Positions 23,734 to 46,644 of a stretch of DNA of 64,000 nt are shown one piece after another (within the stretch, counting starts at the first letter, position 1; every line of letters starts with the position of its first letter). Source of the DNA: Minisyncoccota bacterium (GTDB lineage Bacteria > Patescibacteriota > Minisyncoccia > Phycocordibacterales > XYD1-FULL-46-19). The stretch lies in contig JBAYKU010000003.1 in NCBI GenBank assembly GCA_041664425.1, positions 3,373 through 67,372 of the forward strand, written 5' to 3'. The notes under the pieces are model-generated. The model had not been told where the DNA came from, did no database searches, and worked only from the letters and a program-made list of their open reading frames with translations. The position numbers were made by a program, and so were the translations under genes.

Positions 23734-23812
23734 AGGGTAGATCCGCTGGAGTCTAAAACACTGGGTTTTGGGCTAGCTAGCGAAAGAAATTGACAAAGAA
23801 AGGGAAAAGACG

Positions 23813-24445
23813 ATGTCTACCAAGAACACGTCGAAAGAATCCGAAGTTGTAATGGCAACAGGAGAGCAGGTTGAGCACATCATGGATATGTGGCGTAGGC
23901 GTCTGAATAGCCGCAAACTGACCCTGGCAGAGGCCCAGCACATCATCCAGAACGGCGGTCAGTATTTGCCTATCATGGATAAGGCGGCCGATGTCCTCGT
24001 GGATCAGGTGCGGTCGGATACGCAGAACACGATCATCCGTATGGTTCGCAACGTTCAACGCAATCGGTCTGCGGAGCAGGCCATCAATGCTACCGGACGC
24101 ACGAAGTATGTCGACAGCTCTGTCCTTGCGAGCATGCCGGTCGGTAGTGGCCCCGAGGAAGTGGAACTCGTTTACTTCAAGCTTGGCCGCTATGTTGGCA
24201 ACGAAGAGCTTGAACGCGAGTACGATGTCCGTGGCCTTCGACCCGATCCTCAAGCACAATCGGCTGACAACGAGGGAGATCCGTCTTTCGCGGACGACCA
24301 CCCGAATGGTTGTCTCTGGGGTCGCGATGGTCGGGTGGCAAGTTTCGTCGCGTTCGGTCGTTGGTTCGGCGGGCGCGAGGTGAGCGTCGACCGCGTCGAC
24401 TGCGGCTGGTTCGGCCGCTGGTGGTTCGCCGGTGTTCGCAAGTAA
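23813..24445 (+). CDS. DGR target (variable) protein; the C-terminal ~34 aa are encoded by the variable repeat, ending ...GWFGRWWFAGVRK
   Basis: 3' end is an adenine-mismatched copy of the TR; GC-rich ORF; GGAAAAG RBS. Confidence 0.8.
   Translation: MSTKNTSKESEVVMATGEQVEHIMDMWRRRLNSRKLTLAEAQHIIQNGGQYLPIMDKAADVLVDQVRSDTQNTIIRMVRNVQRNRSAEQAINATGRTKYVDSSVLASMPVGSGPEEVELVYFKLGRYVGNEELEREYDVRGLRPDPQAQSADNEGDPSFADDHPNGCLWGRDGRVASFVAFGRWFGGREVSVDRVDCGWFGRWWFAGVRK
24340..24441 (+). repeat. DGR variable repeat (VR)
   Basis: ~100-bp homology to TR; every mismatch falls where TR has A (A->G/C/T). Confidence 0.85.
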
Positions 24446-24500
24446 TTTTCCCTCAGGCTTAAGTTTCTTTGTGCTTCGGTACTTAGACACTTAGTCCTTA

Positions 24501-27767: not shown

Positions 27768-28442
27768 ATGGGTAAAAGAGGTCCAAAACCGAAAGGGGTT
27801 GTAGATACCAAATGGTCAGCAGACCTGGCCTATGCTATAGGCTTGCTGTCCTCTGATGGATGTCTTTCTTCTGATGGTAGACATATAACTCTAGTTTCAA
27901 AAGATGAAGAACAAATAGTGAATTTTCTAAATTGCCTTAAAATTGAACTCAAAATAGGTAAAACTTACAATGGTTCCAAGGATAAGAGAGTCTATTATCG
28001 TGTGCAAGTAGGTGATGTATTATTTTACAATTTTTTGTTAGAGCTTGGACTTGCCTCTGCTAAATCAAAAACTATTAGTTCTTTAAAAATTCCTGACAAA
28101 TACTTTTTTGATTTCTTAAGAGGGTCTTTTGATGGTGACGGTTGTTTTTATTCCTATTGGGATCCGCGCTGGAAATCTAGTTTTATGTTTTACACTAGTT
28201 TTATTTCTGCCAGTAAAGAACATATTAATTGGCTGCGAGACGAAATATTTAAGAGATTAAAAATTAAAGGTCATATCACTAAGGCTAAGAAAATGAATAT
28301 TTATTATCAGCTTAAATATGCTAAAAGTGATTCTTTGAAGGTGCTAAGAAAGATTTATCAGCCAAATAAGGTCGTGGTATGTCTATCTCGAAAAAGATTG
28401 AAAATTGACCAAGCTTTAGGCATAATAGGGAACAGTCTATAA
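27768..28442 (+). CDS. LAGLIDADG homing endonuclease (two LAGLIDADG motifs), free-standing, ends 4 nt before tRNA-Leu
   Basis: LAYAIGLLSSDGCL and FDFLRGSFDGDGCF motifs. Confidence 0.7.
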   Translation: MGKRGPKPKGVVDTKWSADLAYAIGLLSSDGCLSSDGRHITLVSKDEEQIVNFLNCLKIELKIGKTYNGSKDKRVYYRVQVGDVLFYNFLLELGLASAKSKTISSLKIPDKYFFDFLRGSFDGDGCFYSYWDPRWKSSFMFYTSFISASKEHINWLRDEIFKRLKIKGHITKAKKMNIYYQLKYAKSDSLKVLRKIYQPNKVVVCLSRKRLKIDQALGIIGNSL

Positions 28443-28446
28443 AAAT

Positions 28447-28530
28447 GCGCGAGTGGCGAAGTTGGTAGACGCGATACCTTGAGGTGGTATTGGGAGTAAT
28501 CCCGTGGAGGTTCGAGTCCTCTCTCGCGCA
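28447..28530 (+). tRNA. tRNA-Leu (anticodon GAG), long variable arm
   Basis: GCGCGAG...ATACC TTGAGGT GGTAT...variable arm...GGTTCGAGTCC...CTCGCGCA. Confidence 0.8.
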
Positions 28531-28664
28531 CAATGTGTAAAAAAGCCTAAATCAGGCCTTTTTCTGTAAAAGGATGTTGGTTTGCTTTTTTTATATTGTG
28601 TGATATAATATGTATTAGATAAGTGGTCTTAAACAGCTGTCGCTAGGCGACCAGGAGGTGTTTA

Positions 28665-29021
28665 GTGAGAAAGCCTATCTATCTGTACAGGGTTTACCTC
28701 CAACTTCTTGCCACTGGCAAGGTGGCTAAGTTTGGGGAGACCATGGCTGTATCGGAAGCCGAAGCAGAGAATCATCTCCGTTTCCGGGAGTACGGCGAGC
28801 TCTCGATCGAGCGACTGGAATCGGAGAAGGGTCTCCGGCTGGTCGCAGCCAGGGTTGGTACGACCAAGGCGATGAAGCTGGCCCAGTTGACTGGCGAGTT
28901 ACCTCCGGCCCCCAAGGTCCGTCAGCACCGCCAAGCGCCGGCCCAGCAGTTTTTTGCTGGCACCGGGTTCGGTCTTGCCGAACCACCGACTCGTCCTCAT
29001 CGAGTCCGTCGCCATGACTAA
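28665..29021 (+). CDS. hypothetical protein, strongly GC-rich (compositionally foreign) ORF with its own promoter, GGAGG RBS, GTG start and terminator
   Basis: ORF plus regulatory signals read from sequence; no recognisable domain. Confidence 0.4.
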   Translation: MRKPIYLYRVYLQLLATGKVAKFGETMAVSEAEAENHLRFREYGELSIERLESEKGLRLVAARVGTTKAMKLAQLTGELPPAPKVRQHRQAPAQQFFAGTGFGLAEPPTRPHRVRRHD

Positions 29022-29760: not shown

Positions 29761-30303
29761 ATGGTGTTTACTTGCAGGATATTTGGCAGTATTATTAAAT
29801 ATATGCCAATAGTCAGTTGTGAAATTTGTTCAAAAGAATTTTATTCTAAACCGTCTTGGATAGAAAGGGGGAAGGGGAAGTTTTGTTCGAGAGTTTGTTC
29901 CTCCTTGGCAAAGAGAAACGGAAAAGATATTAAATGTTTTTCTTGCGGTAAGGGAGCTTATAAACCGTTAAAAGATTTAAATAATTCAAAGAGTAAAAAT
30001 TATTTTTGTAGTAAAAAGTGCAGCCTGTCTTGGAATAATTCCTTACATTTTGGAGATAATAGTGTTAATTGGAAAGGGGGAAGATTTTCTTATAAAAAAA
30101 TTATTGAACGAAATGGATTGCCTCAAGTTTGTGTCTTGTGTGGAAAAAATAATACAAAAATTCTCTCAGTTCACCATCTCGACCAAAACAGAAGCAATAA
30201 TGATATAAAAAATTTAGTTTGGCTTTGTCAAAACTGTCATTTTTTGGTTCATCACTATTCAGAAGAAAAACAAAATCTATTTAGTAAGTATGCCAATCAA
30301 TAA
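29761..30303 (+). CDS. HNH endonuclease with three N-terminal CxxC...FCSxxC zinc-ribbon repeats (paralog 1)
   Basis: repeats CEICSKEF...FCSRVCS / CFSCGKGAY...FCSKKCS; C-terminal VHHLDQNRSNNDIKNLVWLCQNCHFLVH. Confidence 0.6.
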   Translation: MVFTCRIFGSIIKYMPIVSCEICSKEFYSKPSWIERGKGKFCSRVCSSLAKRNGKDIKCFSCGKGAYKPLKDLNNSKSKNYFCSKKCSLSWNNSLHFGDNSVNWKGGRFSYKKIIERNGLPQVCVLCGKNNTKILSVHHLDQNRSNNDIKNLVWLCQNCHFLVHHYSEEKQNLFSKYANQ

Positions 30304-30803: not shown

Positions 30804-30876
30804 GGCGGTCATCGTCCAGTGGTTAGGACTTTGCTCTGTGGCAGCAAAAACGTGAGTTCGAATCTCACTGATCGCC
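30804..30876 (+). tRNA. tRNA-His (anticodon GTG) with encoded G-1
   Basis: G-GCGGTCA...TTGCT CTGTGGC AGCAA...GTTCGAATCTCAC TGATCGC C. Confidence 0.75.
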
Positions 30877-31897: not shown

Positions 31898-32236
31898 CTA
31901 GTACGGGATGACTTCTTGGAAGTTGTTGGTCGGGACTCCGACCAGAGCTACCCATAAGTCGTCGTCATACTGTTTTTCGAACTCGTTGAGTTTGACGAAG
32001 AAACCCGTTTGCCACCTCTTGATCTGTTTCCATGGTCGCCAGACGATGGCCGTTTCGCAACTGGCGTTCAATCGAGCGAACACCTTGTCCCCATCAATGA
32101 AGTGTCCATAGATGGTTACCCTCGTGCCACTCAGAGTAAGCACCGACTTGACCGTGCCCACCCCGCCACACTTTTCCTGCAGTTTGGTCTCTAGGTATCC
32201 CAGTACAGCGTCCTTCTTTTTCGTTGCTTCCCACAT
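31898..32236 (-). CDS. hypothetical protein (GC-elevated ORF with GGAGG RBS)
   Basis: ORF with RBS; no recognisable motif. Confidence 0.35.
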   Translation of the reverse strand: MWEATKKKDAVLGYLETKLQEKCGGVGTVKSVLTLSGTRVTIYGHFIDGDKVFARLNASCETAIVWRPWKQIKRWQTGFFVKLNEFEKQYDDDLWVALVGVPTNNFQEVIPY

Positions 32237-32346: not shown

Positions 32347-32589
32347 ATGCGTTTTTCAATCGTTGTGTTGTTGCTGGGTATTATCTTTTTGCTGCGTAAT
32401 TTGGGATTTTTAATGCCAATTGCCAACTGGGATATTGTCTGGCCGATTCTGTTGATTGCCCTGGGCTTGATTATGATGTTCAAGAAGAGAGGTTGCCGTG
32501 GTTGTCATGGCATGGGCGGTGCTTGTAAATGCAAATGCTGCCAATCTCAAGGCTGTTCTTCTTGTAAGGATGGCACTTGCCAGACATAG
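32347..32589 (+). CDS. small membrane protein with two TM helices and a C-terminal Cys-rich (metal-binding-like) tail
   Basis: GCRGCHGMGGACKCKCCQSQGCSSCKDGTCQT tail. Confidence 0.5.
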   Translation: MRFSIVVLLLGIIFLLRNLGFLMPIANWDIVWPILLIALGLIMMFKKRGCRGCHGMGGACKCKCCQSQGCSSCKDGTCQT

Positions 32590-34313: not shown

Positions 34314-34496
34314 ATGTCACTCATCAATTATCTCAAGGATACTAAGACCGAAATGAAGCATGTTAGCTGGCCGACTCAAAGCCAAGTGATTAATTTCACT
34401 TTGTTAGTTTTGGGTTTGTCTATCGGGACCGGTATTTTACTCGGCGCTTTTGATGTTATTTTTACTAGCGGTCTCAAGACCATTATTTTTAAATAA
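34314..34496 (+). CDS. secE: preprotein translocase subunit SecE
   Basis: size, single C-terminal TM, conserved secE-nusG-rplK order. Confidence 0.75.
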   Translation: MSLINYLKDTKTEMKHVSWPTQSQVINFTLLVLGLSIGTGILLGAFDVIFTSGLKTIIFK

Positions 34497-34498
34497 AT

Positions 34499-35044
34499 AT
34501 GGCTAGACAGGAACTAAATCAAGGTCGGAATTGGTATGCGATCCATACTTATTCTGGTTATGAAAATGCGGTCGCGCGCAACCTTAAACAGCGTATCGAA
34601 TCTCTAGGCATGGAAGATAAAATCTTCAATGTCATTGTTCCGGTGGAGAAAAAGGCAAAAATCAAAGCGGGTAAGCGGGTGGTGTTGGAAGAAAAAATTT
34701 ACCCGGGCTATGTTTTGGTGGACATGGTAGTGACTGATGATTCTTGGTATGTGGTCCGCAACACTCCACGCGTGACTGGTTTTATTGGCTCAGGTGTGGT
34801 GCCAGTACCATTAGAAATTAAAGAAATCGAAGAACTCTTTTCTCGTATGGGTGATGAGAGTATCAAACACAAGATTGACTTGGTGGTGGGCGAGACTGTG
34901 TCGATTGTCGATGGTCCGTTTAAGGATTTTGAGGGGAAGGTTAGCGAAATCGATGAAGAGAGAGGTAAGGTTAAAGTTTTGGTTTCGATGTTTGGTCGCG
35001 AGACTCCCGTCGAACTCGATTTCTTGCAGGTCAAGCACATTTAA
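34499..35044 (+). CDS. nusG: transcription antiterminator NusG
   Basis: NGN domain WYAIHTYSGYE, KOW motif. Confidence 0.85.
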   Translation: MARQELNQGRNWYAIHTYSGYENAVARNLKQRIESLGMEDKIFNVIVPVEKKAKIKAGKRVVLEEKIYPGYVLVDMVVTDDSWYVVRNTPRVTGFIGSGVVPVPLEIKEIEELFSRMGDESIKHKIDLVVGETVSIVDGPFKDFEGKVSEIDEERGKVKVLVSMFGRETPVELDFLQVKHI

Positions 35045-35532: not shown

Positions 35533-35684
35533 ATTTCAATACAAGACCGGCGCCAGCGCAAGCTGGCGCCGGTCTGTCGTTTGGGCTAATTTTAGGGTGG
35601 ATTTTGTTGACAATTGGATAGGGAAATAGAGGTTAAGCCCCTTGGGCATCAAAAACATAAAAGGAAAAAAGGAGGGTTGTAATC

Positions 35685-36380
35685 GTGGACTCGAAAGATT
35701 TAGGTGCACTACTTCGTGGAGAAAAAATCTCCACCCCACAGCGTGTGATCAAAGGCCTGCAGGAGCTGGCAGAGGTGGTCAAATACCTTCGCCTGTTTGG
35801 TTTCAAGATTTCTTCAACGACCGGTGTTTGGGACCTGTTCCATATTGGTCACGGTCGTTACCTCGAACAAATGCGTGCTCAGGGACATATAAGTATCGTC
35901 GAAGTTGATTCTGATGAAGTGGTCCGAATGCGTAAACCTGACGACTTGCACCGTCCAATCGTTCCATTGGATGAAAGAATCGAAATGCTTTCGTTCGTTC
36001 GTCCAGTAGATCTGATTTATCCGCTGATGGCAGGGGAGGATCCAATTGAGTTCATTCGAGTTATGAGACCGGATGCATTCATTGTGTCTGAAACATCGGC
36101 AGATTCCAAGGAAGAATACCTGTCTCAGGTGCGTGATCATTGTGGAGAGGTGGTTGTGCTGCCAGCCCAAGCGGCCATTTCTACTACTCGGCGTATACAA
36201 TATATGATGATGGCTGGTGGAATCGAGAGGCTGGTAGAAGTTCGCGACTCGATCACTAGAATGATTGGTGCTGCTCATGGTGATGGCGATATCAAGAACC
36301 CTAAACACGATGAAGTTGCACGTAGTTCTGTTGTGAGTGAACTAACCTTAGGGAATCAAGAAAAGGAAGGTAAACGATGA
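35685..36380 (+). CDS. nucleotidyltransferase of the cytidylyltransferase-like (HxGH) superfamily, function unknown
   Basis: GVWDLFHIGHGRYLEQ (HxGH) motif; first gene of the GC-rich thymidylate island. Confidence 0.45.
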   Translation: MDSKDLGALLRGEKISTPQRVIKGLQELAEVVKYLRLFGFKISSTTGVWDLFHIGHGRYLEQMRAQGHISIVEVDSDEVVRMRKPDDLHRPIVPLDERIEMLSFVRPVDLIYPLMAGEDPIEFIRVMRPDAFIVSETSADSKEEYLSQVRDHCGEVVVLPAQAAISTTRRIQYMMMAGGIERLVEVRDSITRMIGAAHGDGDIKNPKHDEVARSSVVSELTLGNQEKEGKR

Positions 36381-37222
36381 CTCCAGTTATCCTAGCTCAA
36401 AGAGTTTTGGTGGCGTATGTGCCAGTTGTCCACTCGGCTATTATTGAGTGGGCTAAACGGGAAAACTCACCAATTCTCGTACTCTGCCAAGAGTTTATTG
36501 GCGAGTTCCCACAACTCAAGCACGACCTGCGAGCCGTCTCACCTGAGCTTGTCGTCGATATGTTAAAGAGTCTTGGTTTTCAAGCCAGTTTGCTTGATTT
36601 TCAGGCTTTGGTTGCATTAAAGATGATGAGTAAGCCAACTTTTGTCTTGCCGACCGACGAGGTGATGCAACAATTTGCCGAACGCTATCTGGTGGGGCAA
36701 AAAGTTGAACATCAGCGGGTCTTCATTCGCTGGGACAAGATCAACACCACGAGCGAAAACGAGGTTTATCCTGATCGGTCGGTAACGAGCGAGCAATTAG
36801 CCAAAGACATCATGGGTTTGTGCTACGAACATGCCAAGCTGTCTTCAGATTGGTGGCGACAGGTTGGGGCGGCAGCGGTGCGAGATGGTCAGGTCTTACT
36901 CTACGGTGTAAACCGAATGAAGCCGACTGATTACGCGCCCTACCTTGATGGTGACATTCGTGGTTGCTTTGGTTTCGGTGAGCGCCTGGATATCTGCGGA
37001 ACGCTTCATGCGGAAGCGGCGGTCGTAGCTGGCGCTGCCGCACGTGGTCTGTCATTGGATGGTACCGATTTCTACTGTACCACCTTTCCCTGTCCACAAT
37101 GTGCCAGACTTTTGGAAGCTGCCAGGGTTCGGCGCGTCATCTACGACGAGGGGTATTCAGTTTGTGATACTTTCGACATTCTCAAGACTGCGGGAGTTGA
37201 AATCATCAAACTGATACCGTGA
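36377..37222 (+). CDS. dCMP deaminase-like protein with ~130-aa N-terminal extension
   Basis: C-terminal zinc-binding CMP/dCMP deaminase motifs HAEAAVV ... PCPQCARLL. Confidence 0.6.
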   Translation: MTPVILAQRVLVAYVPVVHSAIIEWAKRENSPILVLCQEFIGEFPQLKHDLRAVSPELVVDMLKSLGFQASLLDFQALVALKMMSKPTFVLPTDEVMQQFAERYLVGQKVEHQRVFIRWDKINTTSENEVYPDRSVTSEQLAKDIMGLCYEHAKLSSDWWRQVGAAAVRDGQVLLYGVNRMKPTDYAPYLDGDIRGCFGFGERLDICGTLHAEAAVVAGAAARGLSLDGTDFYCTTFPCPQCARLLEAARVRRVIYDEGYSVCDTFDILKTAGVEIIKLIP

Positions 37223-37285
37223 ACTGTGTGTGGTGGGTTTTATCCCAACCAATATGAGACCGAGACGCTTCACGTGTCTCGGTCT

Positions 37286-37744
37286 TTACTTTTTATAGCC
37301 AATAGGGAAATTAATAATTTTTCTTTTATTCTTCCCACTAATTTTTTGTCCGACTAATAAATGGGCATGTAGGTGGGCAACCGAGGCCCCTGTATAATTA
37401 GAGTCACCAAACCTAATAGCAAAACATCCTGCTGGTAATTTGTATTTTTTTGATAACCATTTTAAATGGTCAGCTAATTCTGCAAAACCTGACCCACTGA
37501 TTTCTTTTATGTGTTTTATGTGCTTGCGATAAATAAATAAATAGTGATGAGTTGTGCCAGAGTAAGGGTAATCGTTTTTAGTTACCACCCAATATTTGCC
37601 AGTTTTTTCAATTGGGTGGTCGTGGTATTTGGCTAAATATTTAGGGCAAAAAGGGCAAGCATTTATTTTGGTCAATTCTTCCATTTTAGCCTTTTGAGCT
37701 GGTAGGCGGGCGTGATGAAAATTAAAAAGTTTGTTTTTTAACAT
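37286..37744 (-). CDS. HIT (histidine triad) family protein with N-terminal CPFCP zinc motif
   Basis: HLHAHLL histidine-triad motif. Confidence 0.6.
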   Translation of the reverse strand: MLKNKLFNFHHARLPAQKAKMEELTKINACPFCPKYLAKYHDHPIEKTGKYWVVTKNDYPYSGTTHHYLFIYRKHIKHIKEISGSGFAELADHLKWLSKKYKLPAGCFAIRFGDSNYTGASVAHLHAHLLVGQKISGKNKRKIINFPIGYKK

Positions 37745-37824
37745 AAGGTTATCTTAGCATTTTTTAAAAATAAAAAAATAACAGCCACTGGCGCGCGAGG
37801 GCGCCAGTGGCTGGCTGAGGTGAC

Positions 37825-38721
37825 TTAAAAAGCCACAGGGATACCTCCAATCGGAGGATGAGGGTCATAATCCGTAATCTCGAAATGTTCGGCCCGAAAG
37901 GCGAACAAGTCTTTGATCTCTGGGTCAATGATCTGGAGAGTGGGTAATCGTCGCGGTTCACGGGCGAGCATTTTCCACACTCCTTCCATTTGATCGTCGT
38001 AGATATGAGCATTCTTGATAGCGTGGACATAGTATCTGGGTTTCAAACCAGTTACCTGAGCCAAGGCTAACGAGAGGGCTGTATATTGAGCCAGATTGGC
38101 CGGTAGTCCAATAGTGACATCACACGAGCGTTGTTCTACACACGTATCTAGACAGTCACCGTAAACGTAACAAGTTACCCAACCATGGCACGGGGCAATG
38201 AAAACCTTGCGGTCTCCAAACTCCGAGGCGTAGTAAGGTACCCACGGGCTGACCATGTTGGTTCGTGACCACGGCTTCTCTCTTAGCCCTTGTACCAGAG
38301 CGGCGAATTGGTTGAAACCGTTTGGTAGTCCTGGGGTAGGGAAGTTGTGAAAGGCGACACCATAGGAGCCAGGCCCGAAGTCACCTTCGGGTAGTCCAAG
38401 GGTGTCACAAACTTCTTTAGTGCCCCATTGCTCCCACCAGTCGCAACCATAGGCCTTGAACTCTTCGACGGTGTGAGCGCCGTTGATCATAGCGAAGATT
38501 TCGCCGATAGCCTTTCGCCAAAAACCAATCTTACGTTCGGTGATTATCGGTGCACCATTGCGCAAGTCAAAGCGCAAATCCAGCGGTTTGAAGAAAGTAG
38601 TGCAAGGCACTGCTTGGTTGTTTACTTCTTGCCGTTCTCCTCTATCCAATATGAGACGTAACAGGTCTCGATACTGTGTATCGGGAGTACGATCTTCTAG
38701 ACACAAATACTCCATCTGCAT
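37825..38721 (-). CDS. thyA: thymidylate synthase (ThyA family; Asn in GLPAN suggests dUMP specificity)
   Basis: FIAPCH catalytic Cys motif, QRSCDVTIGLPANLAQY, REPRRLPTL, DYDPHP...PVAF match ThyA blocks. Confidence 0.75.
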   Translation of the reverse strand: MQMEYLCLEDRTPDTQYRDLLRLILDRGERQEVNNQAVPCTTFFKPLDLRFDLRNGAPIITERKIGFWRKAIGEIFAMINGAHTVEEFKAYGCDWWEQWGTKEVCDTLGLPEGDFGPGSYGVAFHNFPTPGLPNGFNQFAALVQGLREKPWSRTNMVSPWVPYYASEFGDRKVFIAPCHGWVTCYVYGDCLDTCVEQRSCDVTIGLPANLAQYTALSLALAQVTGLKPRYYVHAIKNAHIYDDQMEGVWKMLAREPRRLPTLQIIDPEIKDLFAFRAEHFEITDYDPHPPIGGIPVAF

Positions 38722-38864
38722 ATAGATTCTCCTCTCTTGTGGTTTGTTGTCGGAGGCCAAATTACTCTAATTCCGATATTAGCAGGAAAGGGGAGCTAGT
38801 CAATTTGCAAAAACTAACGCCGTACCTCGGAGGCACGGCGTTGCAGATTCTTTTGTTTGTGTTC

Positions 38865-39356
38865 TCAGTCGGCGAACCGACGAAGAATTTGGAAGGTTGA
38901 GGTGTATTGGTCTCCCTCTCCCTGACTAATAGCCATCTGCTCCACTACTTCCCAGCATTTGGCTAGCTCAGGAAAATGGGCGTCTCCTGCGCATTCAACC
39001 TTTACCACTGTGCGGTAGATCTTGTTAGCCCAGGGTATGGCCGAGAGAAAGACTTCACTACCGCCAATCACAAAGGTTTCGAGTTCTCTGTGAATGGCTT
39101 TCTCGACCTCAGGCCAGCTGCGACAGACGACCACCTCGCAGGTCTGTTCCATGGTTCTCGACAGAACGACGTTCCTTCTTCCGGGTAGGGGGCGAAACCT
39201 TTCCGGTAGTGAGTCATAGGTCTTTCGGCCCATGACTACAGTGTGACCCATGGTGAGCTTCCGGAATCTTTTCATGTCGCTAGGGAGCGACCAGGGCAAT
39301 TGGCCTGCTTTGCCAATCACTCCATTAAGAGAAACCGCGCAAATGATTGAGATCAT
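38865..39356 (-). CDS. folA: dihydrofolate reductase
   Basis: MISIICAVSLNGVIGKAGQLPWSLPSDMKRFRKLTMGHTVVMGRKTYDSLP. Confidence 0.85.
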   Translation of the reverse strand: MISIICAVSLNGVIGKAGQLPWSLPSDMKRFRKLTMGHTVVMGRKTYDSLPERFRPLPGRRNVVLSRTMEQTCEVVVCRSWPEVEKAIHRELETFVIGGSEVFLSAIPWANKIYRTVVKVECAGDAHFPELAKCWEVVEQMAISQGEGDQYTSTFQILRRFAD

Positions 39357-39453
39357 TTATGACTCCTTTCTAGACCTATTGTCTGCTCAGACTTTAGCAG
39401 GAAAGTGACTATAGTCAATTGTTCAGTAAAATGCTAAATTTCTAACATTAAAT

Positions 39454-40632
39454 ATGAAAGACAAACAAATCGAAAAATTGATTAAAACCGAGGCCACGAG
39501 GCAGAAGAAAGTGATCAACCTGATCGCTTCCGAAAACTATGTCTCAGCCGATGTCTTGAAAGCTTTAGGATCGGAGTTGGTCAATAAATATGCCGAAGGT
39601 TATCCAGGTGAACGCTATTATGGCGGCAACCAGATTATTGATGAAGTAGAAAAGCTCTGCCAAAAGCGCGCTCTAAAAACTTTTGGTTTGTCGGATAAAA
39701 AGTGGGCGGTTAATGTTCAGCCCCTGTCAGGCTCACCAGCCAACTTGGCAGTTTATCTAGGCTTGGTTCCGTTGGGTGAAAAAATTATGGGGATGTCGAT
39801 GGCTCACGGTGGCCACCTCACTCATGGTCAAAAAGTTTCTATTACTGGCAAGGCCTGGCAGCAGGTATCCTATGGGGTTGATGAAAAAACGGAAATTCTA
39901 GACTATGACCAACTGCTCACTCTGGCTAAGAAGGAAAAGCCAGCGATTATTGTCGCCGGCTTCACAGCTTACCCTCGTAAAATTGATTGGAAAAAGTTTC
40001 GAGCGATTGCCGATGCTGTCGGAGCCTATCTAATGGTAGATATGTCGCACTTGGCCGGCTTGGTCGCTGGTGGCGCCTATCCGTCGCCCTTTCCTTATGC
40101 AGATATCGTCACGACTACTACTCATAAAACTTTACGCGGTCCGCGCTCAGCTCTGATTTTTTCCCGGATTGATCAACGCGATTTGCCAGCGAAGATTGAT
40201 AAAGCCATTATGCCTGGCCTACAGGGTGGCCCGCACATCAATCAGGTGGCAGCCGTAGCGGTAGCTTTAGACGAAGCTAGTCGTTCGGAATTTAAAAAAT
40301 ATGCCAAGCAGATTGTGGTCAATGCTAAAACTTTAGCGACCGAATTAAAAAAGAAAGGTTGGCGGCTGGTCTCTGGTGGAACTGATAGCCATTTGATTTT
40401 GGTAGATGTCTGGAATGGTGGACAGGGGATTGGTGGCAAGGAAGCTAGTGAGCGCTTAGAAAAAGAAGGAATCATTGTTAATAAAAACGGTATTCCATTT
40501 GATCAACGCGGGCCGGTTGATCCCTCTGGTATTCGCCTCGGCACGGCCGCGGAAACTACTCGTGGTAAAACCGAAAAAGATATGATTAAAATCGCCGAAA
40601 GAATCGATAAAATTTTGAGAACAAAAAAATAA
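39454..40632 (+). CDS. glyA: serine hydroxymethyltransferase
   Basis: PLP-lysine region TTTTHKTLRGPRS, overall SHMT similarity. Confidence 0.9.
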   Translation: MKDKQIEKLIKTEATRQKKVINLIASENYVSADVLKALGSELVNKYAEGYPGERYYGGNQIIDEVEKLCQKRALKTFGLSDKKWAVNVQPLSGSPANLAVYLGLVPLGEKIMGMSMAHGGHLTHGQKVSITGKAWQQVSYGVDEKTEILDYDQLLTLAKKEKPAIIVAGFTAYPRKIDWKKFRAIADAVGAYLMVDMSHLAGLVAGGAYPSPFPYADIVTTTTHKTLRGPRSALIFSRIDQRDLPAKIDKAIMPGLQGGPHINQVAAVAVALDEASRSEFKKYAKQIVVNAKTLATELKKKGWRLVSGGTDSHLILVDVWNGGQGIGGKEASERLEKEGIIVNKNGIPFDQRGPVDPSGIRLGTAAETTRGKTEKDMIKIAERIDKILRTKK

Positions 40633-41054
40633 TGGTTCTAAAAATAAAAATCAAAAAATTAAATCCAGAAGCCAAGTTGCCGACCTATGCCCATCCGGGG
40701 GATGCGGGGATGGATGTTTATGCTGTTAGTAAAACCGAGACCGAAAAATTTGTGGAATATGGTACGGGGCTGGCTTTTGAATTACCAACCAACCATGTGT
40801 TGTTGGTTTTTCCCCGCAGTAGCATTTCTAATACTGATTTGTCACTGACTAATTGCGTCGGGGTTTTAGACTCGGGCTATCGTGGCGAATTAAAAATGCG
40901 GTTTCGAAAAACTGGCGAGGTGGAATATGCAGTTGGGGAGAGGATTGGTCAGATTCTGGTTTTACCTTATCCAGAAATAGATTTTGAGGAAGCCGAAGAA
41001 TTGGCCGACAGCTCTCGGGGCGAAGGCGGTTTTGGTAGTACGGGGAAGAGTTAA
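40632..41054 (+). CDS. dut: dUTP diphosphatase
   Basis: AHPGDAGMDV, VLDSGYRGEL dUTPase motifs. Confidence 0.85.
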   Translation: MVLKIKIKKLNPEAKLPTYAHPGDAGMDVYAVSKTETEKFVEYGTGLAFELPTNHVLLVFPRSSISNTDLSLTNCVGVLDSGYRGELKMRFRKTGEVEYAVGERIGQILVLPYPEIDFEEAEELADSSRGEGGFGSTGKS

Positions 41055-43125: not shown

Positions 43126-46100
43126 ATGGAAGAAAATAAAGACCTCGTAGAAAAATCAGCTCTCGCCAAGCGCGAGGAGGAGATTTTGGCTGGTTGGCAA
43201 ACTAAAAAAGTTTTTGAACAATCCTTGAATCAGAAGGCCTCTAAGGGAGAATTCGTTTTCTATGATGGTCCGCCTTTTGCCACGGGTCTGCCACATTATG
43301 GCCACTTGATTGGCGGCACCATCAAAGATGTTATTCCGCGTTATAAAACGATGCAGGGTTACCATGTCTCGCGTCGTTGGGGTTGGGACTGTCATGGTTT
43401 GCCAGTAGAAAACCTGATTGAAAAAGAACTCGATCTTAAAACCAAAAAAGAGATTGAGGACTACGGTATCGGTAATTTTAATGAGAAGGCCCGCGAGAGT
43501 GTCATGCGCTATGCTGATGAGTGGAAAAAAATCGTGCCACGCCTCGGTCGCTTTGTGGATATGGATAATGATTATCGGACAATGGATCCGAGCTATACCG
43601 AATCAATCTGGTGGATTTTCAAAAATCTTTACGACCAAGGTTTGATTTATGAGGGGTATAAGGCGATGCAGATTTGCCCACGTTGCGAGACGACCCTGTC
43701 GAACTTTGAGGTTAACCAGGGTTACAAAGATATCACTGATATTTCAGTCTTTATTAAATTTGAGTTGGTTGATGAACCCGGAACTTTTGTGGTGGCTTGG
43801 ACGACGACGCCTTGGACCTTGCCAGGGAATGTCGCTTTGGCCGTGGGTGCCGATCTAAAATATGTAGTGACTTCAGTAGAAAAAAACAAGTATATTCTTT
43901 TAGCTGAGCGGTTAGAATTTTTAAAAAATAAATTATTTGCCGATCAAGAAGTGGTAATAGAAAAAGAAATAACCGGTGCTGATTTGATCGGCTTACCTTA
44001 TGAACCAGTTTTTGATTACTATGCCAAAGACGAAACCTTAAAAAATCACGAACGTGGTTGGAGGGTATATGGCGCGGATTTTGTGACGACTGAAGATGGT
44101 ACTGGAGTGGTCCATATCGCCCCGGCTTTTGGTGAAGATGATATGAAGTTAGGCCAGAAAGAAAATTTGCCTTTTGTTCAACATGTGGCCATGAATGGTA
44201 CTTTCAAACCGGAGGTAGGGGATGGTCTGGCCGGTCTACGAGTGAAGCCGATTGAAAATCCCCAAGCGACTGATATCGAAATTATAAAAATCTTGGCGGT
44301 CAAGGGCTCACTTCTAGCCAAGGAAAAAATCGTTCACTCTTATCCGCATTGTTGGCGTTGTGAGACTCCGCTTCTCAACTATGCTACTTCGTCATGGTTT
44401 GTAGAGGTGACAAAAATCAAAGATAAATTAGTGACGGAAAATAAAAAAATCAATTGGGTGCCAGAGCATATTAAAGAAGGCCGATTTGGTAAATGGCTCG
44501 AAGGGGCCCGTGATTGGGCCATTTCTCGCACCCGTTTTTGGGGTGCTCCACTGCCGGTCTGGCGTTGCGAAGCTTGCCAGGAGAAGAAAGTTTTCGGCTC
44601 CTTGGCCGAATTGCAGGCCGTCATGGTGCCAGCTAAAAATAATTATTGGATTATGCGTCATGGCGAGGCTGAGAGTAATCTTGGTGATTCAATAAGCTCT
44701 GACCCTCTTGCCCCGAATCATTTGATAGAAAAAGGTAAAGATAAAGTTAAAGAGTCAGCTCAAAAATTGAAAGGAGAAAAAATCGACTTAATTATCTCAT
44801 CAGATTTTGTGCGAACAAAAGAAACAGCTGAAATTATGGCAGAGGAATTAGGTTTAACCTCAGATCAGATTGTTTTTGATGAGCGTTTGCGAGAAATTAA
44901 CCCAGGCAGCTTTACTGGTAAAAGTTGGGGTGACTACAACGACGCTTTTGGAGAGAGAATTAATCGTCTAAATGGGCGTTTACCTGGTGGTGGCGAGAAT
45001 TTTAATGAGGTGCGCCGTCGGGTGATGGCTGTTTTGTATGAATTTGAACAAAAATATCAAGGTAAAAAAATTCTGGTTATCACGCATGGTTTGCCGGCTT
45101 TTATGATTCAGGCTACGGTTGATCATTGGGATGATCGAGCGACTACTTATCGGCCTTATCCGAAGCCTAGTTTCGAACCAGGAGACGTTCGGGCTGTCAA
45201 TTTTGCCCCTATACCTCATAATAATAATTATGAATTAGACTACCATCGCCCATACATAGACGATATTGAAATGTCTTGTGCTTGTGGTGGGCAAATGAAG
45301 CGCGTGCCAGATGTCTTTGACTGCTGGTTTGAATCCGGCTCCATGCCCTATGGTCAAAATCACTATCCTTTTGAAAAAGAAAAAGGTGGTTTTGACCCGA
45401 CTAAGCAAACTTCCTTCCCAGCTGATTTTATCGCTGAGGGGCAAGATCAGACTCGAGGCTGGTTTTATACTATGTTGATTATTGGTACGGCTTTATTTGG
45501 TCAGAGTCCTTATAAAAATGTGGTGGTCAATGGTTTGGTTCTAGCTGAAGATGGCCAGAAAATGTCTAAACATCTGAAAAACTACCCTGATCCACTAGAT
45601 TTGGTCAACAAATATAGCGCCGATGTCTTGCGACTTTATTTGATGGCTTCGCCAGCAGTGCACGCCGAGGATCTAAACTTTTCCGAAAAAGGCGTGGGGG
45701 AGATCCAGCGTAAAATAATCTCTCGCTTACTTAACGTTGTGACTTTCTTAGAGACCTACGGCGAGGTCAAGGGAGGGGAGATTAAAACTCCCAAGACGGA
45801 TGACATTCTCGATCAATGGATTTTGTCACGTTTAGGTCAAACGATCGCTAAAGTCGAGAAAGAGTTTGAGGGCTATGAACTAGACCGTGCCGTCTGGGCC
45901 CTGGATGATTTTATTGACGACCTTTCAAACTGGTATCTGCGTCGCAGTCGAGATCGTTTTCGTGGTGACAATCAAACCGATCGTGAGCAAGCCAATCAAA
46001 CTTTGTTGTTTGTTCTGTCGGTGACGGCTAAAATTTTAGCTCCGCTAGCACCATTTTCTGCCGATGATATCTACTTGCGCCTAACCGATGGTCAGGCTAA

Positions 46101-46644
46101 AGACAGTGTCCATCTGGAAACTTGGCCAGAAGCAATATCGACCGATGAAAAATTGATTGATCTAATGAAAGAAGTGCGAAAAGTAGTAACTTTAGGTTTG
46201 GAGATGCGCATGTCAGCTGGGGTCAAGGTGCGTCAGCCTTTGCAGAGTATCGCTATTGCTGATAAAAAATTGTTGGGACAAAATGAATTATTGGAACTGG
46301 TCAAAGATGAATTGAATGTTAAAGAAGTTATTTTTGATCAGGCTTCAGGGGAGCCGGTCTGGTTGGAGACGAAGATAACCCCAGCTTTGCGTGAAGAGGG
46401 AATGGCTCGTGATTTTATTCGTCTGATTCAGGAAAAACGCAAACAAGAAAATTTGGTGCCGAGTGATCAGGCTGGTCTAAAGATTTTTGTTCGTCCTAGA
46501 AGCCAAGAAGTTTTTAAAAAGTTTATTGATGAAATCAAGCTGGTGGCCGGGTTGAGTGGGGTAGAATTTTTGTCTACTGAGCCAGGGACTGATCCAGATG
46601 GATCAGTCCAAGAAGAACCAGTTTGGTTGGATTTGGTTCGTTAG
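43126..46644 (+). CDS. ileS: isoleucyl-tRNA synthetase carrying a ~195-aa inserted histidine-phosphatase (PGAM-like) domain between the WGAPLP and DVFDCWFESG blocks
   Basis: HYGH (HIGH), CP1 editing domain, KMSKH (KMSKS); insert has RHG, SSDFVRTKET, GGENFNEVRRR, ITHG phosphatase motifs (nt ~44638-45225). Confidence 0.85.
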   Translation: MEENKDLVEKSALAKREEEILAGWQTKKVFEQSLNQKASKGEFVFYDGPPFATGLPHYGHLIGGTIKDVIPRYKTMQGYHVSRRWGWDCHGLPVENLIEKELDLKTKKEIEDYGIGNFNEKARESVMRYADEWKKIVPRLGRFVDMDNDYRTMDPSYTESIWWIFKNLYDQGLIYEGYKAMQICPRCETTLSNFEVNQGYKDITDISVFIKFELVDEPGTFVVAWTTTPWTLPGNVALAVGADLKYVVTSVEKNKYILLAERLEFLKNKLFADQEVVIEKEITGADLIGLPYEPVFDYYAKDETLKNHERGWRVYGADFVTTEDGTGVVHIAPAFGEDDMKLGQKENLPFVQHVAMNGTFKPEVGDGLAGLRVKPIENPQATDIEIIKILAVKGSLLAKEKIVHSYPHCWRCETPLLNYATSSWFVEVTKIKDKLVTENKKINWVPEHIKEGRFGKWLEGARDWAISRTRFWGAPLPVWRCEACQEKKVFGSLAELQAVMVPAKNNYWIMRHGEAESNLGDSISSDPLAPNHLIEKGKDKVKESAQKLKGEKIDLIISSDFVRTKETAEIMAEELGLTSDQIVFDERLREINPGSFTGKSWGDYNDAFGERINRLNGRLPGGGENFNEVRRRVMAVLYEFEQKYQGKKILVITHGLPAFMIQATVDHWDDRATTYRPYPKPSFEPGDVRAVNFAPIPHNNNYELDYHRPYIDDIEMSCACGGQMKRVPDVFDCWFESGSMPYGQNHYPFEKEKGGFDPTKQTSFPADFIAEGQDQTRGWFYTMLIIGTALFGQSPYKNVVVNGLVLAEDGQKMSKHLKNYPDPLDLVNKYSADVLRLYLMASPAVHAEDLNFSEKGVGEIQRKIISRLLNVVTFLETYGEVKGGEIKTPKTDDILDQWILSRLGQTIAKVEKEFEGYELDRAVWALDDFIDDLSNWYLRRSRDRFRGDNQTDREQANQTLLFVLSVTAKILAPLAPFSADDIYLRLTDGQAKDSVHLETWPEAISTDEKLIDLMKEVRKVVTLGLEMRMSAGVKVRQPLQSIAIADKKLLGQNELLELVKDELNVKEVIFDQASGEPVWLETKITPALREEGMARDFIRLIQEKRKQENLVPSDQAGLKIFVRPRSQEVFKKFIDEIKLVAGLSGVEFLSTEPGTDPDGSVQEEPVWLDLVR

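Follow-up and report, generated by a model that had tools for sequence, protein, structure and literature searches.

The window analysed here is a stretch of 64,000 nucleotides from contig JBAYKU010000003.1 of a Minisyncoccota bacterium, a member of the Patescibacteria (Candidate Phyla Radiation, CPR). The contig, 119 kb long, comes from a metagenome-assembled genome of Candidatus Paceibacterota. At positions 35580-39400 it carries a block of five genes that includes a thymidylate (dTMP) pathway. The block, hereafter the cassette, lies downstream of secE (34314-34496), nusG (34499-35044), and rplK (ribosomal protein L11; 35107-35532, plus strand; TIGR01632, 185 bits), the upstream anchor of what proved to be a conserved locus. 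The first cassette gene (35685-36380, plus strand) encodes a 231-residue nucleotidyltransferase (NTase) of the cytidylyltransferase (HUP/HIGH) fold (PF01467, E 2.5e-12), with a GTG start and a ribosome-binding site, GGAGGG, at approximately 35671. Its stop overlaps by 4 nt the gene for a 281-residue dCMP deaminase protein (36377-37222, plus strand), in which PF00383 covers residues 143-256. On the minus strand follow genes for a 152-residue HIT-family protein with a zinc motif (37286-37744; Pfam DcpS_C/HIT), a ThyA-family thymidylate synthase (37825-38760; PF00303, E 3.7e-60, 203.8 bits), and a 163-residue dihydrofolate reductase (DHFR; 38865-39356; PF00186, E 1.8e-48, 164.7 bits). The longest ThyA open reading frame (ORF) begins at a TTG at 38760, and the probable start is an ATG at 38721 (298 residues), as in the existing gene call. 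The cassette is followed on the plus strand by glyA (serine hydroxymethyltransferase, the source of 5,10-methylene-tetrahydrofolate; 39454-40632; PF00464, 527 bits), dut (dUTPase, a source of dUMP; 40632-41054; TIGR00576, 109.7 bits), argS, and then ileS. An initial annotation made from the sequence alone had named the cassette genes, glyA, and dut at these positions, and the ORF list and profile searches bore out both content and coordinates.

We scanned one genome for each GTDB species, which confirmed relatives in at least 552 matched stretches, examined the best 80 loci, and annotated 90 loci by tblastn with the window proteins. The layout secE-nusG-rplK, NTase(+), deaminase(+), HIT(-), ThyA and DHFR in either order(-), glyA, dut, argS, ileS is shared by six Paceibacterota/Vogelbacteria contexts, although their deaminases are no more than 40-68% identical to that of the window. 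The core NTase(+)-deaminase(+)-HIT(-)-ThyA(-) is present in approximately 75 of the best 80 loci. These loci range in guanine-plus-cytosine (GC) content from 0.31 to 0.71 and span Saccharibacteria, Woese-, Moran-, Uhr-, Adler-, Nealson-, Campbell-, Taylor-, and Peregrinibacteria, and Paceibacterota. Among the 90 annotated loci, the NTase gene lies directly upstream of the deaminase gene in every case; 85 have HIT and 83 have ThyA, with most absences falling at contig ends. The position of DHFR varies by lineage (upstream of the NTase gene, between HIT and ThyA, or downstream of ThyA), and it falls inside the flank in 59 loci. glyA lies downstream of the cassette in many loci, and dut is near it in 41. 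nusG and rplK are nearby in approximately 54 loci, mostly 0.1-4 kb upstream of the NTase gene and in a few cases downstream on the opposite strand. The arrangement around rplK in related genomes thus indicates that this gene order is ancestral.

Several observations implicate the cassette genes in a common function. First, the distance from the NTase stop to the deaminase start has a median of -1 nt, with overlap in 57% of 82 loci. Second, the median gap between HIT and ThyA is 10 nt. Finally, natural fusions connect the genes: one 469-residue protein (P0308) joins NTase, the deaminase's HUP-like N-terminal domain, and deaminase, and DHFR-HIT fusions occur in two lineages (L053 7912-8880, minus strand, 323 residues; L090 4211-5149, minus strand, 313 residues; L numbers denote the compared loci). 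The initial annotation had remarked that no role in dTMP synthesis is obvious for the NTase and HIT genes, which holds for textbook roles, yet both belong to the unit. These comparisons argue that the block is very probably an ancestral, phylum-wide, and functionally integrated Patescibacteria dTMP cluster at its usual site downstream of secE-nusG-rplK. dTMP synthesis has been described as belonging to the minimal Patescibacteria gene repertoire (PMC12455944).

The fate of rplA at this locus is consistent with such a history. The cassette sits where rplA would normally follow rplK, and no rplA is present in the 64-kb window. A Ribosomal_L1 gene (rplA) is found exactly between rplK and the NTase gene in L015, L021, L037, L043, and L077. 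Because rplA occupies this position where it is retained, its absence from the window points to loss beside an old neighbour and not to insertion. rplA thus appears to have been lost in the window lineage, which fits the OD1-L1 Parcubacteria group, described as lacking ribosomal protein L1 (PMC5220378).

Some loci contain additional or different genes. Moran- and Uhrbacteria-type loci carry extra HIT paralogues with an HxHxQ triad inside the cassette, some with a C-terminal extension of approximately 150-200 residues, and Nudix-like motifs were recognized by eye in ORFs inserted in L047 (Moraniibacteriota) and L084. The inserted HIT-paralogue or Nudix-like ORFs lie at L021 7864-9443, L043 8276-8830, L044 8489-9016, L048 8227-8994, L063 7915-8700, L047 7995-8495, and L084 5351-5992. 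A dNK-like kinase and an NT5C-like nucleotidase are encoded at the cassette edge in Moran- and Uhrbacteria loci. In a Woesebacteria locus (L039 8017-10710), an F420-0:gamma-glutamyl-ligase-like gene, a RibD_C/DHFR-like reductase, and dut come after the NTase-deaminase pair, with no HIT or ThyA within 7 kb. Certain loci from third-party-annotation (TPA) metagenome-assembled genomes (MAGs) are labelled 'Pseudomonadales', 'Gammaproteobacteria', or 'Bdellovibrionales'. We did not accept these labels as spread beyond CPR; the nusG and rplK genes of these loci, where they fall within the flanks, resemble those of the window.

The cassette was also found in an actinobacterial setting. A Streptosporangiaceae MAG (JBEKIF010000002.1, L010 7336-10705, equivalent to L086) encodes the full set in the order NTase(+), deaminase(+), HIT(-), DHFR(-), ThyA(-), at a native GC content of 0.68-0.71 and flanked by unrelated actinobacterial genes (flavohaemoglobin, PabB, FtsH). 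Metagenomic deaminase homologues of approximately 288 residues, approximately 41% identical to that of the window, align closely with the Streptosporangiaceae copy. The IMG/VR contig UViG_3300037483_001116 (158 kb, GC 0.62; L091 5471-6831) encodes the NTase-deaminase pair only, in an actinobacterial-like version. On this contig, which is actinophage-like, the pair adjoins a gene for Tad3 (anti-Thoeris, a Thoeris inhibitor).

The initial annotation described the block as being of clearly higher GC content than its host. It is indeed the GC-richest stretch of its size in the window (0.473 against 0.426 for the rest; the maximum of all 3.8-kb windows, z approximately 2.1), and its tetranucleotide distance falls in the top 6%, but the excess is modest and uneven. 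GC content is 0.505 for the deaminase gene, 0.497 for ThyA, 0.522 for DHFR, 0.473 for the NTase gene, and 0.346 for HIT, which lies mid-block and under the window mean. GC at third codon positions (GC3) is 0.51-0.58 for deaminase, ThyA, and DHFR and an average 0.414 for the NTase gene, against a window mean of 0.42. Measured against the 64 gene-sized ORFs of the window (mean GC 0.430, sd 0.051), every cassette gene stays within z = 2 of the spread between genes.

The same pattern recurs in related genomes. The NTase, deaminase, ThyA, and DHFR genes are GC-richer than their surroundings in L006 (locus GC 0.35), L008 (0.38), L011 (0.41), L009 (0.44), L012 (0.43), and L093 (0.47). In these loci HIT is GC-poorer than the other four genes, and it lies under its surroundings in all except L008. 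Across 78 loci the mean offset from the flanks is +0.039 for ThyA, +0.032 for DHFR, +0.026 for NTase, +0.017 for deaminase, and -0.010 for HIT. Gene-specific offsets are seen at genomic GC contents of 0.35-0.47 and are absent in L004 (0.51). Because the offset recurs in relatives of very different genomic GC, composition is no mark of recent import here, and the slightly raised GC appears to be an intrinsic, lineage-conserved property of these genes. This is a caution for island-calling, as conserved enzymes of AT-rich streamlined genomes can mimic foreign composition. Stronger outliers without Pfam matches lie elsewhere in the window, at 23777-24490 (minus strand, GC 0.559), 28665-29021 (plus strand, GC 0.591), and 31898-32236 (minus strand, GC3 0.673); these ORFs are better candidates for foreign DNA than the thymidylate block.

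Perfect GC-rich hairpins with stems of 12-14 bp fill the rplK/NTase, deaminase/HIT, HIT/ThyA, and ThyA/DHFR gaps and contribute to the local GC excess. By our reading of the sequence, the first (35544-35575, plus strand, 3' of rplK) has a 14-bp stem and is terminator-like with a weak T tract. The second (37256-37286), between the convergent deaminase and HIT genes, has a 13-bp stem and resembles a bidirectional terminator. The others lie on the minus strand, 3' of ThyA (37782-37813, 13-bp stem with a T-run) and 3' of DHFR (38816-38842, 12-bp stem). Two of the cassette hairpins have a common GGCGCCAG/CTGGCGCC core.

Another history, compatible with an ancestral cluster and in our view rather unlikely, is that the locus itself is old and individual genes (deaminase, HIT, DHFR, perhaps the ThyA-DHFR pair) were replaced by alleles of related, somewhat GC-richer Paceibacterota. 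Such replacement would account for the local rise in GC and for the order, ThyA then DHFR, that the window shares with L004 and L093. It draws on a patchwork of identities: L012 is nearest for nusG, rplK, and ThyA (95, 92, and 76%), yet its deaminase is only 49% identical, while L093 is nearest for deaminase (68%) and HIT (78%), L011 is nearest for NTase (78%), and DHFR is at most 47% identical everywhere. The raised GC3 of deaminase, ThyA, and DHFR and the flipping of ThyA/DHFR order among close relatives point the same way. However, unequal rates and sparse sampling can imitate such a mosaic, and the GC offset in clade relatives, including the low-GC L006, makes transfer unnecessary as its explanation.

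The deaminase consists of two domains. Its C-terminal part (36790-37222) is a dCMP-deaminase domain (PF00383, 56.5 bits against a cut-off of 25), with the zinc site HAE (211-213) and PCxxC (238-242); H211, E213, C239, and C242 are invariant in 59 deaminase sequences. Family-profile searches matched the dCMP deaminases of phage S-TIM5 (4p9c, 5.6e-23), T4, Streptococcus mutans, and human (1vq2, 2hvv, 2w4l), and Foldseek returned the same enzymes (4p9c, 2e-11) together with PBCV-1 bi-DCD, a fold neighbour that acts on both dCMP and dCTP. For the dCMP deaminase family, Iyer et al. 2011 (PMC3239186) list an 'NA' motif two positions past HxE and, ahead of helix 2, a Cys/His structural zinc insert. 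The cassette deaminases lack the 'NA' motif and have HAEAA(x)IA instead; they carry a DGDPRxxFxxGE insert or cap with no conserved Cys/His, and a conserved SSDWWRQ. The ComEB equivalog model scores 33 against a cut-off of 219.

The initial annotation called the N-terminal extension of approximately 130 residues unexplained, and by Pfam it is so: residues 1 to approximately 130 match nothing. An AlphaFold2 model of this domain (36377-36760) has a pLDDT of 89.8 and shows a five-stranded Rossmann-like fold. Its top PDB match is TagD (2b7l; E 0.05, probability 0.96, a weak match), followed by PPAT, PanC, and FAD synthetase. Conserved residues include P16 and H19 (PVxHxGY), R52, P92, and R118-W119 (FLRWDK); PVxHxGY occupies the position of the HxGH motif of nucleotidyltransferases, and FLRWDK follows the last strand. 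An exhaustive phmmer search of 1.84 billion representatives recovered the domain solely at the N-terminus of such deaminases, which are approximately 275-300 residues long. The model, fold matches, and conservation suggest that it is a diverged HUP (nucleotidyltransferase-like) Rossmann domain. We also considered it as a paralogue of the cassette NTase. An hhalign comparison placed the HxG motifs in register with a probability of 3% (E 0.013), and we retain this only as a fold-level likeness.

The NTase scores well above the general family thresholds (PF01467, 47.6 against 21; TIGR00125, 37.6 against 27.7). The window protein carries FHIGH and AISTTRRI, and the HxGH, RKGPxRP, and STT..R motifs are invariant in 40 orthologues, in which H53, G55, and H56 are invariant, T167 and R172 nearly so, and K84 and R90 kept. 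By these motifs the NTase appears catalytically intact. Family-profile searches matched ethanolamine-phosphate cytidylyltransferase (ECT; 3elb, 6e-31), HldC (5x9q, 2e-27), and TagD. Equivalog scores fall far under their cut-offs (RfaE_dom_II, 76.7 against 181.5; TagD, 30.1 against 165.4; PPAT, 19 against 104), and the NTase is thus no orthologue of HldE domain II, TagD, or RibL. It shares with ECT, HldC, HldE domain II, TagD, and RibL the fold and the HxGH, (R/L)KGxxRP, and ISTT motifs. ECT is a tandem of two cytidylyltransferase (CT) domains, so that the pairing of an active CT domain with a CT-like partner has a precedent; unlike in that group, the proposed partner domain of the cassette NTase resides on a deaminase.

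The HIT protein has the zinc motif that the initial annotation reported, with CPFC...H, N56, RFGD, and HLHAHL. In an alignment of 44 orthologues, H123 and H125 are invariant, the third triad position is H or Q, C29 and C32 are kept, and the CxxC...H zinc motif is accompanied by an invariant Asn and Arg. PF01230 matches 43 of the 44. The window protein is borderline in Pfam (HIT, 20.4 against 21.5; DcpS_C, 25.9 against 24) and matched no NCBIfam model. Profile matches include HIT proteins (E to 5e-7), Ap4A phosphorylase (3ano, 0.003), and GalT (0.05), and in JGI the family goes by Ap4A HIT hydrolase or ATP adenylyltransferase. Where the sources supply organism names for the best 120 of 726 relatives, these are all of Patescibacteria type. 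Sequence similarity places the protein between Hint/Fhit-type hydrolases and Ap4A-phosphorylase/GalT-type transferases, with which it shares HxHx(H/Q), CxxC...H, Asn, and Arg. Unlike those proteins, it is linked or fused to ThyA/DHFR.

ThyA is a divergent member of its family. It passes PF00303 (203.8 against 24.3) and TIGR03284 (144.9 against 108.35), falls under all NCBIfam NF0024xx equivalog cut-offs (for example, 173 against 327), and is 37-40% identical to solved bacterial thymidylate synthases (TSs) in PDB alignments. We aligned 75 cassette ThyAs to E. coli ThyA, with residue numbering that agrees with the table in PMC6005164. C146, N177, E58, Y94, H147, and D169 are present in all 75, H207 in 72, and Y209 in 69; W80, W83, R166, and S167 are present in 73-75, and G173 is essentially invariant. 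The C-terminal I-P-(T/V)-(P/A)-(V/I) is found in at least 70. The initial annotation had proposed a check for Asn or Asp after GLP, and the residue is Asn (GLPANL; APCH), with Asn177 throughout the survey. Asn177 favours dUMP over dCMP as the substrate, and the conserved C-terminus and the linkage to DHFR favour reductive methylation.

The phosphate-binding arginines are less conserved. R166 is invariant and R126' is present in 67 of the 75 (K in 6). R21 is replaced in 73, by I, Q, or N in approximately 70 (R in 2), and R127' is Thr in 73. Further family signatures are His128 (91%), replacement of Lys48 by Arg, an insert of approximately 10 residues after W83, and an insert after W133. The family thus retains all catalytic residues and lacks two of the four phosphate-binding arginines. 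Substitution at R21 is said to have been found tolerated by Kawase et al. in 2000. The TS of Vibrio parahaemolyticus (VAAP clade), in which Arg127' is replaced by Gly, is active with a higher Km for dUMP, and the R127' position is tolerant in TS mutagenesis (PMC6005164). We had considered the missing arginines as proof of a substrate other than dUMP, and toned this down given the natural replacement of R127' in an active TS and its tolerance of mutagenesis. VAAP-clade and CPR enzymes are alike in the replaced Arg127' (Gly there, Thr here) and in the Lys48 to Arg change. CPR ThyAs differ in also lacking Arg21, which leaves Arg126' and Arg166, and in His128 and the two inserts.

The initial annotation's reading of a coherent dTMP pathway is upheld by the dCMP deaminase, the ThyA with Asn177, and DHFR, together with glyA and dut. 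As supported by motifs, the deaminase domain would convert dCMP (possibly dCTP) to the dU nucleotide and Dut would convert dUTP to dUMP. ThyA would then reductively methylate dUMP with methylene-tetrahydrofolate (methylene-THF) made by GlyA, and DHFR would recycle dihydrofolate to THF. The NTase, translationally coupled to the deaminase, and the HIT protein, a predicted nucleotidyl hydrolase or phosphorylase co-transcribed with ThyA, would both be integral to the unit. The NTase may dock on the degenerate NTase-like N-terminal domain of the deaminase as a pseudo-dimer, much as the tandem domains of ECT do. It could couple (d)CTP to an acceptor, yielding a (d)CMP-conjugate and pyrophosphate, and HIT cleavage of the conjugate would then yield a nucleoside monophosphate, an 'activate and release' pair. 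Such a pair would feed cytidine nucleotides (dCMP) into the pathway, as a counterpart of phage T4 dCTPase.

Two known systems offer comparisons. The classical dCMP-deaminase route to dTMP (ComEB/DCTD, ThyA, DHFR, GlyA, and Dut), with its clustered phage T4 cd, td, frd, and gp56 dCTPase genes and dNTP-synthetase complex, resembles the cluster in the steps dCMP to dUMP to dTMP, in folate recycling, and in tight clustering; clustering and fusions hint at a complex here too, and the deaminase is nearest to the S-TIM5/T4, streptococcal, and human enzymes. The cluster differs in having no dCTPase or MazG-type enzyme in its conserved core, where NTase and Zn-HIT are invariably found instead, in the extra HUP domain of the deaminase, and in being cellular and ancient, not phage-derived. 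The protozoan bifunctional DHFR-TS is likewise a fusion within the thymidylate cycle that implies channelling. The fused partners here are DHFR-HIT and NTase-deaminase, and ThyA itself is unfused.

That the NTase/HIT pair supplies dCMP from (d)CTP is a tentative proposal, less likely than not, and several points weigh against it and against the integrated cluster more generally. We infer the precise NTase and HIT reactions from sequence. A one-step pyrophosphatase would be a simpler source of dCMP, and the two-step route has no obvious rationale. The likeness between the N-terminal domain and the NTase is structural only (hhalign probability 3%, E 0.013; best fold match E 0.05). A few loci (L020, L039) have the NTase-deaminase pair with no HIT or ThyA nearby. 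Finally, per-gene identities are mosaic, and members of the clade may to some extent have exchanged alleles or undergone rearrangement.

A carrier-linked pathway is a more doubtful version of the integrated cluster. The NTase would couple a (deoxy)cytidine nucleotide to a carrier (as dCDP-X or a dinucleoside pyrophosphate such as Ap2dC), the HUP-deaminase and ThyA would act on the carrier-bound base, and Zn-HIT would free dTMP, or dTDP by phosphorolysis. Because the base would be kept on a carrier, this scheme would explain the depleted phosphate clamp of ThyA.

It is very unlikely that NTase and HIT are housekeeping genes with no functional link to the dTMP genes beside them. Neither enzyme class has a known dTMP role, CPR genomes are compact, and gene order may freeze near ribosomal operons. 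However, NTase adjoins deaminase at every annotated locus, with overlapping stop and start codons, and the NTase-HUP-deaminase and DHFR-HIT fusions connect the genes directly. Moreover, all five genes are retained together in an unrelated actinobacterial context, and the NTase-deaminase pair occurs on a phage-like contig.

The initial annotation had also raised nucleotide or DNA-base modification chemistry, in which the cluster would make a modified nucleotide or base (5-hydroxymethyl-dU/dC or hypermodified thymidine) and not plain dTMP. ThyA homologues, deaminases, and nucleotidyltransferases do co-occur in phage hypermodification loci, and the divergence of this ThyA below all NF0024xx cut-offs could be read in that sense. 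ThyA lacks the Asp at 177 that marks phage dCMP hydroxymethylases; a dUMP hydroxymethylase remains compatible with the sequence. The evidence nevertheless makes modification chemistry highly improbable: the dUMP-type Asn177 is invariant, and the C-terminal closing segment and Y94, E58, and H147 are kept. Hydroxymethylases release THF and so have no use for DHFR, whereas here DHFR is closely linked and in places fused to HIT. The linkage extends to glyA and dut, the cluster is found in essentially every Patescibacteria lineage sampled, which fits a housekeeping role, and the loci inspected contain no hypermodification-type kinase, glycosyltransferase, or aminoacyl-transfer genes.

The block had originally been taken for a compositionally foreign island, probably acquired horizontally and possibly from phage. 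td/frd/cd sets are common in phages (PHROG matches), and the literature records one transfer of thyA into Patescibacteria (PMC12455944). We rejected a phage origin after a tblastn search of ThyA against 50,697 phage records, in which the best match was 34% identical; identity is 58-76% in clade relatives and 46% in the most distant one compared (L009). A scan of 2.9 million viral contigs turned up the deaminase type on a single one. The block has no tRNA closer than 4.7 kb (the nearest is at 30805), and no integrase or transposase Pfam match was recorded for neighbouring genes; direct repeats were not searched. The marks of a genomic island are thus missing, as the locus is occupied in all relatives examined, its composition is shared by orthologues, and its borders lack tRNA, integrase, and transposase signatures. 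Although the block is the GC-richest stretch of its length, a recent, possibly phage-derived insertion after rplK that displaced rplA is almost certainly wrong, being refuted by synteny conserved in the same order at nusG-rplK in near and distant Patescibacteria, with rplA between rplK and cassette wherever present and an AT-rich HIT in mid-block.

The window has other features outside the cassette. The catalytic domain of the isoleucyl-tRNA synthetase encoded by ileS (43126-46644, plus strand, 1172 residues) is interrupted by a histidine-phosphatase (His_Phos_1) domain at residues 508-663, an architecture also recorded for the ileS of the relatives L004, L006, L008, and L009. Two AT-rich ORFs, at 27768-28442 (plus strand, GC 0.335) and 29761-30303 (plus strand, GC 0.308), lie near a tRNA-Leu gene (28447-28531). 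Both may be remnants of homing endonucleases, given their matches to LAGLIDADG (faint) and HNH (weak) endonucleases. An 80-residue ORF at 32347-32589 (plus strand) is hydrophobic in its N-terminal half and ends in a tail very rich in cysteine (CRGCHGMGGACKCKCCQSQGCSSCKDGTCQT).

Patescibacteria represent a large share of bacterial diversity. To our knowledge, they lack de novo nucleotide synthesis and retain few nucleotide conversions, of which dTMP synthesis is one. The dTMP pathway itself is known; the conserved accessory enzymes, the deaminase architecture, and the ThyA variant set this version of it apart, and our search of full-text literature found no description of the cassette, the HUP-deaminase architecture, or a two-arginine ThyA. 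The dTMP genes of Patescibacteria thus form a deeply conserved module in which two catalytic components are unexplained, and this marks a concrete gap, open to testing, in a pathway usually regarded as fully understood. How Patescibacteria obtain dCMP or dUMP would be answered if the NTase/HIT pair supplies the substrate or carries it. The carrier-linked scheme, if true, would amount to thymidylate synthesis by channelling, in a form confined to Patescibacteria and a single actinobacterial lineage. A role of NTase and HIT in dTMP synthesis, if true, could offer lineage-specific targets or markers.

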